From assembly GCF_056746865.1 (NCBI RefSeq), contig NZ_JBWKMP010000002.1: a stretch of 64,000 nucleotides of DNA; one strand, given 5' to 3'. This DNA comes from a plasmid. Positions 24,001 through 27,000 of this stretch are shown here, piece after piece. Each line of letters starts with the position of its first letter. Position 1 is the stretch's first letter. Made by a program: the position numbers.

Positions 24001-27000
24001 GCATATCCATACCGTATCTATACTGTCCCGGAAGGGGCATTAGTAAAAAACATACTAACTAATGAATATCTAGGAAAAACCCCTGTGGTTGTGGACGTGA
24101 GCAATACCGAAGCTGGTTCTACTTTTGGGATTTCTTTATTTAGACATGAAAATGTTGCTATAAAGATTTTTACAGTAATGCCTTCAGCAGAAAATAATTT
24201 TGCTGTTTCTGGACTCAGATGTTGCAACTATGTCATTGCCGGGCAAAGCACCTTTAAACGTAGTAAATGATGGGAATGGCGCTTCTGTTCATATAGAACT
24301 AAGACCTTATATGTCTGAACCTGCGCACACCCCATATTAATATAACAAGAAATTAAAAATATAAATCATATGAACTGCATCATAAAGATGCAGTTCAATA
24401 TTTATTCTGATACTTTTAATTTTTCTTTTATGAACTCCTCTAGCTCCTTAATAAAACCCGCACTTATCCTATTGAATTCAATGCGAATTTTTCTTCCAGT
24501 ATTGTTTTTACTGATTCTTGCATACTTATCTTTGTTATCAAAAGTAATAAGATCACTTGTTTCCCATTTTGTGGAATAAGATTTTTCACAAACACTTTCC
24601 ACAGATTGTGTGATTTTCTCCATTACAACTTTTTGGGCAACTTGGAAGATCTCCAATGTCTAAATCTTTTGTTTCCTCTTTAACATTATCTATTACTTCA
24701 TCTAAAGGAAATAGATTTTTTTGCACATATTTCTGTAAACGAGACAAGCGACTATAATAGGAGTTCGGTATTCCTTCATAATCCGGGAATAAAGAGATCA
24801 ATGTTTCGTCAATACGTGCCGCCTGGATTCTTTTGGCTACCGATACATGACTAATCCCAAGATATGCTGCGAGTTCTTCATTAGTAGAAAATCCCTTTTC
24901 TTCCATTTTCTTGATAAATTGAAACCCAACTTCTCTATATGAAAATTTTCGAGATGTTTGTGCTGCGGATATAATTGAATTTATATCATCTTCGGTTAGT
25001 TCATCCGGTAGTACCCACAGGGGAGATCCTTTTCTGCCTTTATACAGCAGAAACGTCTGCGACTTCCTTCTATTAATAAATAAACCCCATCTCTTTTTAC
25101 AGCGATCCCTTCGGTATCGACCCCTCTTTCTTCAATCTGCTTAAGAATATCTCTAACAGAATAATCTGTAAGGGCTTCTTGATTTCGTGGGTTTGCTGGA
25201 TGGACTAAGGTCTCCTTCTCCACTCTCTGGGCTGGAACAATCACATGTTCCGCTTCAAGTCTTCGGCCCTTATGAAGAGTGAATAACTTTTTTATGCGAG
25301 GTGCTGTTTTCAAACCCGCAAGACCTGAACGGTGACCGACTTCTGTCCGCTTTGGTGCGTTTAAATATCGAGATTTATCATTCCCGATATGTTGCTCATC
25401 GCTCATGCGTTAACTCCTTGCTTAGCTGAAAAACTTTTTATTTCATTTATAAATTGTTGATATACCTGTAATACAGATTCTTCTGCGACATCAAGTTGCT
25501 TTGCGGAACAAAGTTCCTCTGATTTTTTGATATCAAGCACTGTACGCCCTTTGGAAGCAGCTGCCTTAAATGCTTCAGAATTTTTTATGTTAGCGGACAT
25601 CAAAAGGTCCTGAACAGTTCTGATTAATTTATCCAAAACTATTCTTTCATATGGACTTTTGTCATCAACATTGACAGCAAGAACTTTGAACCATTTTAAA
25701 TTATCGCCCTTACTTGGTGATTGTTTAAACCTTTCACTTATTGTAAGCATGAAGTCTGTAGTAGAGGCGTAATCATATTCACGTGGTGACACTGCGACAA
25801 GAATCCCATCGGCCGCTTCGTCAGCAGCCCAGATCAAAGGTGAATCTTCAGGTGGAGTGTCTATAATAATCAAATCATAGTTCTGCTTCAGTACCGGTAA
25901 GATAACTTCCTTGAAACGTAGTAACAAAGACGTTCGTTCTTCTCTAGAACATTGCCAGTATTTATCTTTAAAACGAGCATCTGTCGGAAATGCCGTTATC
26001 ACGTCCAAGTTTGGCAGATGCGTTGAAAAAGGCATATTAGTGATGATTTCTTCTTCAGAGAATCCTGAATCTAAATATTTTTTATACTCAGAATTTTCTT
26101 CATAAATTCCAAGGATTGCATCAATTGCTGTAAGGAAGACATCATCTTCTGAGACACTTTGAATCATGCTGCTTCCAATCGAACCTTGTGGGTCCCATTC
26201 GATCATTAATACACGTGCATTCAGTTGTAGATCTAAAGCAGCTGCTACTGCTAAAGCTACAGATGTAGTGCTTTTCCCTGTACCGCCTTTATGATTCTGA
26301 GTAACAATAGCTCTGCTAAAGTAATGATCGCGGTACTTGGGATAACCCAGGGCATCCATTATTTTTTGAACATCCCAGCGGGTGTAAAGATGATTTTTGT
26401 TTTGATAAATAGGTGCACCAACAACTTCTTTTTCTTCTAAGTCCGAAAGTATTTTATTGAACGTTACTCGTGACTTCCCAAAAAAATCAGAGAGATTTTT
26501 TTTATTTAAACAGTGGTTGTAGATCAGTCTATCAACACCATCAACACTATCATCAGAAACAGATACTCTTGATGAAGCCATCAGAGATTCCTTAAGAGAA
26601 ATCTGCTCGCTTTTCATGCGCTGACCAACGAGGGCGATCTTTTCAAGTAAATTCATGGTTATGACCTTTTTGCACTGAAAACCGACTTTTACGCATATAT
26701 GTAAACTTTACGCATAATGCGTCCATTTCATTGTTATACGTACAATTCTATCCTTTGTTTCAATCCTAAGCTAATGTTTGTTTACTTTTTTATGATTTTT
26801 TGTGAGCTTAACTTGCAGATGAGAGCTCAGACTCTCTAGTCCTTAATGCTCATTCTTTTTAAACCACGATTCTTGTCGACTTCTCTACGCTTTGACGTTA
26901 TGAGCTCCATTAATGAATCTTAGCCTACCCTATTTCTTGCTTAAGAATTTAATTCTTCTCTCACCGGTGTGCTGATTTAAGTTTTCCTAACTGTGAATCG

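Follow-up and report, generated by a model that had tools for sequence, protein, structure and literature searches.

The question raised by this locus is whether a plasmid has lost one half of a partition system or whether the deposited sequence is wrong. The window, that is, the whole 64,000-nucleotide stretch of plasmid DNA that was analysed, contained parA and, downstream of it in the ORF map, a ParB-like reading frame in three minus-strand ORFs. A single uninterrupted parB frame was not found, the gene being split by two indels (Table 1). The initial annotation had reported the three ORFs and the two compensating frameshifts correctly, and it had offered two explanations: loss of the system, leaving an orphan ParA, or homopolymer sequencing errors. 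Our comparison with related plasmids indicated that the frameshifts are very probably base-calling or assembly errors, and that the module would be a normal P1-like type Ia parAB.

Table 1. Features of the window and their lesions relative to the reference plasmids.
Feature	Position	Strand	Remarks
hdtA	18750-19203	-	Private 1-bp insertion at 19114; substitution at 19105
Type II partition module	19607..21294	-	parM (20257-21294) and 212-aa gene (19607-20245), both intact
278-aa hypothetical	22602-23439	+	Private 1-bp insertion at 23115
129-aa hypothetical	23950-24340	+	Private 1-bp insertion at 24215; substitutions at 24217 and 24220
Hairpin	24371..24397		Perfect 11-bp stem, T-rich tails on both strands
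parB	24402..25406	-	P1-ParB-like; two 1-bp indels, 0 substitutions
parB ORF, piece 1	24996..25406	-	136 aa
parB ORF, piece 2	24586..24906	-	106 aa
parB ORF, piece 3	24402..24656	-	84 aa, with TTG as start codon
Indel 1 (missing C)	25020..25023	-	C4 run, GGATCT-CCCC-TG; C5 (GGATCTCCCCCTG) in all complete reference plasmids
Indel 2 (extra T)	24647..24648	-	GAGATC-TT-CC; GAGATCTTCC vs reference GAGATCTCC
parA	25403..26656	-	Uninterrupted, 417 aa; type Ia Walker-type partition ATPase (predicted)
249-bp tandem array	27061..30043	+	About 10 units, roughly 70% alike
TraC-family gene	30471-33143	-	Private in-frame -3 and -6 nt at 30636-30640 and 31124-31125
Type-F TraK secretin gene	37281-38553	-	Private extra C at 37785; product ends at 267/423 aa
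Second initiator, RepB family	41223-42098		Intact
Dam-family adenine methyltransferase gene	45659-46471	-	Plasmid-encoded, intact
DUF4942 gene	48252-49943	+	Opposite-sign 1-bp indels at 49295-49298 and 49482, 184 bp apart
RepHI2 initiator	55294-56380	+	Private 2-bp deletion at 55794, CGTCC--AGTC vs CGTCCAAAGTC; product ends at 190/362 aa

The parA gene was intact in the ORF map, as had been stated, and its ORF contained NHKGGTGKSTTS and the Walker A motif KGGTGKST. The product was 100% identical to WP_032084678, with 0 mismatches and 0 gaps. It showed Pfam matches to PF13614 (E = 2.3e-20), PF01656 (E = 2.5e-10), CbiA, and MipZ, and the motif has the deviant Walker A form (KGGxxK[ST]) within a ParA/MinD-fold ATPase. 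The ATPase domain started at about residue 115, and the N-terminal extension of ~115 aa agreed with the size of type Ia proteins (~400 aa, with ~100 aa before Walker A). The closest solved structure was ParA2 of V. cholerae (7npd, E = 4e-37, query 64-396), after which P1 ParA (3ez2, E = 2.8e-12, query 63-315, chain 54-300) and P7 ParA (3ez9) were also matched. The alignments with 7npd and 3ez2 extended into the N-terminal region, for which Pfam gave a weak hint of an HTH (HTH_Crp_2, E = 0.013). Judged by these matches, ParA is assigned to type Ia, the class of P1 ParA, SopA, and ParA2, in agreement with the initial annotation.

The nature of the parB lesion was examined by a base-by-base alignment of positions 24300-26800 with the intact homologue of pSTM6-275, in which parB is a single gene of 1005 nt that overlaps with the end of parA. 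Exactly two differences were found, both 1-bp indels, of opposite sign and about 375 bp apart. The missing C lay directly 3' of a GATC site and caused a -1 frameshift at codon ~128 of 334, while the extra T, also directly 3' of a GATC site, caused a +1 frameshift at codon ~254 of 334. Only the former sat in a homopolymer; at the latter, a single T had become TT. When the C was added and the T removed, GSRRRFCCIKAEKDLPLWVLPDEL was restored together with a 334-aa ParB that was 100% identical to WP_032192066, and therefore parB carries no substitutions. This repair also confirmed that one more C in the C4 run brings back the predicted ...GSRRR...DLPLWVLPDEL stretch. The indel pair does not rescue ParB by itself, because the shifted frame reaches a stop 8 codons past the first indel; a functional "compensated" parB allele was rejected on this ground.

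The separate parB pieces gave weak or partial family matches, the 84-aa piece matching PF08775 ("ParB family"). The repaired 334-aa ParB scored 43.8 bits on PF08775 (cut-off 25), so that the C-terminal HTH and dimerisation/DNA-binding domain was recovered, whereas in the window this domain is split over two frames. Furthermore, P1 ParB (1zx4) was matched with E = 3.6e-16 over query residues 150-330 and P1 ParB residues 142-333. In the search for an arginine patch (GxRRxR), GSRRR was found at residues 114-118 of the repaired protein. The scores for TIGR00180 (47.3 bits, cut-off 58.45) and NF010252 (48.2 vs 274) were below threshold, and the repaired ParB had no match to the Pfam ParBc domain. 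The label "SopB/ParB-like" that had been given to this frame was imprecise as regards SopB, no SopB structure matching it at E <= 0.01.

Several partition systems can be compared with this module. It shares with P1 ParA-ParB-parS the large size and N-terminal extension of ParA, the parA-parB operon order, and a ParB with an HTH and a C-terminal dimer domain; the sequence similarity is distant, however, and the window ParA is closer to the chromosome-2 ParA2 of V. cholerae. F SopA-SopB-sopC has the same class of components, a type Ia Walker ATPase and a ParB-family adaptor, but the score on the SopA model was no higher than 31 bits, its cut-off being 725, and SopB structures were unmatched at E <= 0.01. 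The module is therefore classified, from its homologies, as P1-like rather than Sop-like. The nearest relative was the IncHI2 backbone module (WP_032084678/WP_032192066; pSTM6-275, NZ_CP019647; pM172-1.2, NZ_CP058716), which was nucleotide-identical over 2.5 kb save for the two 1-bp indels. It had the same gene order and the same neighbours, including the 249-bp array upstream and, at a distance of about 3 kb, the parM module; the parB indels were the only difference and are most likely record errors. By all these comparisons, the locus is to be regarded as the known backbone parAB of IncHI2 resistance plasmids, a standard type Ia P1-like module that hundreds of deposited plasmids share, with nothing new. 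Its counterpart in the IncHI1 plasmid R27 is the type I module of that plasmid.

By homology to P1 ParA/ParB, ParB would bind a centromere, the ParA ATPase would pattern on the nucleoid, and ParB-stimulated ATP hydrolysis would move plasmid copies apart. The parB gene of the actual plasmid most likely specifies the usual protein of 334 aa. Downstream of parB, no P1-type parS was found but only a hairpin, which lies in the gap that separates the parB stop from the convergent 129-aa gene and is probably a bidirectional terminator. The candidate centromere lies upstream of parA instead, where a 3.8-kb non-coding stretch between parA and the TraC-family gene holds the 249-bp array. A 22-bp core, TTGGCGATTAAGGGGGTTAAAT, is nearly invariant among the units; 10 copies of it with <= 1 mismatch were present at 27375-30043, all on the + strand. 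In the 64 kb, no copy was found outside the array (0 expected by chance), and the core of the first unit was garbled in the window (27134-27140). The reverse complement of the core contains TCGCCA, which we take to be the box B hexamer of P1 parS, and ATTTAAC, presumably box A with one mismatch. Because of this resemblance, the 249-bp array is a candidate centromere for a P1-like ParB, and the repeated core may be the site itself. The second partition system mentioned in the initial annotation, a ParM/ParR module, was present and intact, and the identical product of parM showed ParM_N/StbA_N Pfam matches.

Positions 24300-26800 were searched by megablast against PLSDB, and 1128 plasmid records were matched. 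These were conjugative IncHI2-type plasmids from Escherichia, Salmonella, Enterobacter, Klebsiella, and others, in which the region was annotated as "ParA family protein" and "ParB family protein". The region also occurred in 277 complete E. coli records. The best PLSDB match was 99.9% and never 100%, and for 24560-25110 the top identity was 99.6% in both record sets, which corresponds to the two gaps. Had any record carried a single one of the two indels, it would have headed the ranking, and none did; therefore, neither indel occurs in any of the 1128 PLSDB records or the 277 complete E. coli records. The lesion pair is private to the window. The comparison with homologous plasmids that had been suggested as a check thus gave no parB frame split by these indels in those plasmids. 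In addition, the 106-aa and 84-aa ORFs and five other truncated products of the window (the 37-aa hdtA fragment was left out of this exact-protein look-up) were absent among about 15 billion proteins. Scans of sequence collections for the +T allele gave 0 matches; the intact-allele controls gave only 0 and 1, and these scans add nothing.

The window was aligned with two references of independent origin, the E. coli plasmid pM172-1.2 and a plasmid from Salmonella Indiana. Outside the repeat array, 13 indel events were private to the window, compared with 8 substitutions. Five of these eight substitutions lay within 10 bp of an indel (P about 1e-10 if independent), and such indel-adjacent substitutions mark poorly called stretches rather than mutations that arose independently. 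Seven of about 46 conserved backbone genes were broken: hdtA, two hypotheticals, parB, and the genes for the TraK secretin, DUF4942, and the RepHI2 initiator. The indel pair of the DUF4942 gene had an adjacent substitution and showed the same pattern as that of parB. In the TraC-family gene, each of the two lesions was a cluster of small gaps with a substitution, the reading frame still being open. As a control, the two references were compared over the same 24 kb with the repeat region counted in, and no more than 3 substitutions and 1 indel separated them, whereas the window differed from one reference at about 80 positions, with 33 gap openings, over 37 kb. For the 4.6 kb at 26700-31300, hundreds of plasmids tied at 8131 bits, and the window was at most 98.5% identical to any of them. 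The private indels in six conserved genes other than parB, which the initial annotation had not noticed, are the main argument for a quality problem in the record.

The deletion in the C-run was also encountered elsewhere. The exact 136-aa truncated ParB product was found in at least 10 contigs (1 from NCBI, 1 from ENA, and 8 Logan assemblies of SRA runs), and the C5-to-C4 deletion was common to 10/10, on differing SNP backgrounds; it therefore arose or was called independently. The ten carriers are GCA_014857685.1, ERZ1714338, and the runs SRR19090882, ERR11030090, ERR13475188, ERR11049006, SRR17036756, SRR29015153, SRR25608261, and SRR16525781. Further indels were present in six of the ten, mostly at homopolymers, CCTGG sites, or GATC sites and of a long-read type. 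The longer contigs contained many homopolymer deletions (runs of 5-8) and CCTGG/GATC-site errors, and their genes were fragmented. One error-rich assembly had a 2-bp deletion at the GATC site of the second indel, and the +T of the window was found in 0/10. The C-run in IncHI2 parB is, as these assemblies indicate, a recurrent error site.

The parB frameshifts are regarded with considerable confidence as errors, for the following reasons. First, the two indels are unaccompanied by substitutions, and the repaired protein is WP_032192066. Second, neither indel was seen in the 1128 and 277 records. Third, private lesions of the same kind occur throughout the window and break 7 backbone genes. Fourth, the references differ so little from each other. 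Fifth, at least 10 assemblies show the C5-to-C4 change again, and most of these contain additional indel errors. Sixth, the other truncated products of the window that were looked up are missing from the protein collection. Some observations count against this reading. The second indel and most of the other private indels lie outside homopolymers and were not met in the error-rich long-read-type assemblies; the earlier proposal of homopolymer sequencing errors is accordingly supported as to sequencing errors, and as to homopolymers for the first indel only. Moreover, an intact parMR could buffer a real loss, and a C-run is a plausible site of genuine slippage too.

A true pseudogene is the foremost alternative. 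Slippage in the C-run would have inactivated parB in the isolate, and the second indel would have followed later, which we consider unlikely; it is similarly doubtful that ParM/ParR, toxin-antitoxin systems, or selection now maintain a plasmid left with ParA as an orphan and with the 136-aa N-terminal piece of ParB. The frameshifts do stand in the given sequence, parM and the 212-aa gene downstream of it are intact, and the C-run deletion is seen repeatedly in other assemblies, although the carriers of the C4 allele are mostly error-rich. A genuine pseudogene has its lesion in the DNA of the organism itself, ideally in common with independent sequences of the lineage, and a background of substitutions, but here parB had 0 substitutions, the indel pair was absent from all complete records compared, and the mutational spectrum was dominated by indels, with the rarer substitutions clustered beside them. 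Real decay would, in addition, require the simultaneous loss of six other backbone genes through private indels, including repHI2 and the TraK secretin gene. The function of the module also bears on the matter. In the related IncHI1 plasmid R27, the type I module is reported to be the major determinant of stability, with the type II module as the minor one (PMC4489591, citing Lawley & Taylor 2003). On that account, a real loss would be costly, which argues against a pseudogene and fits the absence of the lesion from complete plasmids. The loss of the system and an orphan ParA, as put forward in the initial annotation, are hence argued against by the lack of substitutions, the private indels, and the six likewise broken genes.

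As for the cause of the errors, Dam methylation was considered. In long-read data, methylation of GATC bears on miscalled bases at these sites. Both parB indels lie directly 3' of GATCT, and an error-rich assembly has a deletion at the second site. A Dam-site artefact was rejected as a general explanation, since most of the other private indels are not at GATC, CCWGG, or homopolymers. Methylation-related base-calling may explain the parB pair, not the whole error pattern.

It is highly improbable that the C-run beside the Dam site is a hypermutable tract or a programmed frameshift site toggling ParB. In favour of this reading, one and the same 1-bp deletion is seen on several SNP backgrounds, and the run lies next to GATC in a plasmid that has a Dam-family methylase gene of its own. 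Against it, no complete, polished plasmid carries the C4 allele, the stop after 8 codons in the shifted frame leaves no recoded product possible, five bases make a short run for phase variation, and six of the ten C4 carriers have further indels, mostly at homopolymers or methylation motifs. Programmed frameshifting and phase variation were rejected on these grounds. There is accordingly hardly any prospect that the C5 run is a real recurrent switch by which full-length ParB is lost, ParA and the 136-aa fragment are kept, and ParMR is relied on, and next to none that the ten independent C4 assemblies reflect biology instead of base-calling.

With sequence error as the preferred reading, the main value of the result is in quality control: the record is best treated as one with scattered indel errors, among them the seeming frameshifts of hdtA, the DUF4942 gene, repHI2, and the traK secretin gene. 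The "orphan ParA" is no lead of biological interest. Furthermore, assemblies repeatedly drop a C from GGATCTCCCCCTG in IncHI2 parB, which can lead plasmid surveys to call pseudogenes falsely. Should the frameshifts be true, which is unlikely, the plasmid would offer a natural experiment on whether ParMR, the type II module, can by itself maintain an IncHI2 plasmid.

Two minor observations concerned the complete plasmid NZ_CP031190, which was one of the good references. Its IS3-family insertion at ~51351 was missing from the window, and the adjacent 198-aa hypothetical aligned only partly. Its metallophosphoesterase gene had a 1-bp deletion of its own (GGG to GG) at the equivalent of ~21701, with the annotation altered accordingly, and therefore stray indels occur in other deposited complete plasmids too.
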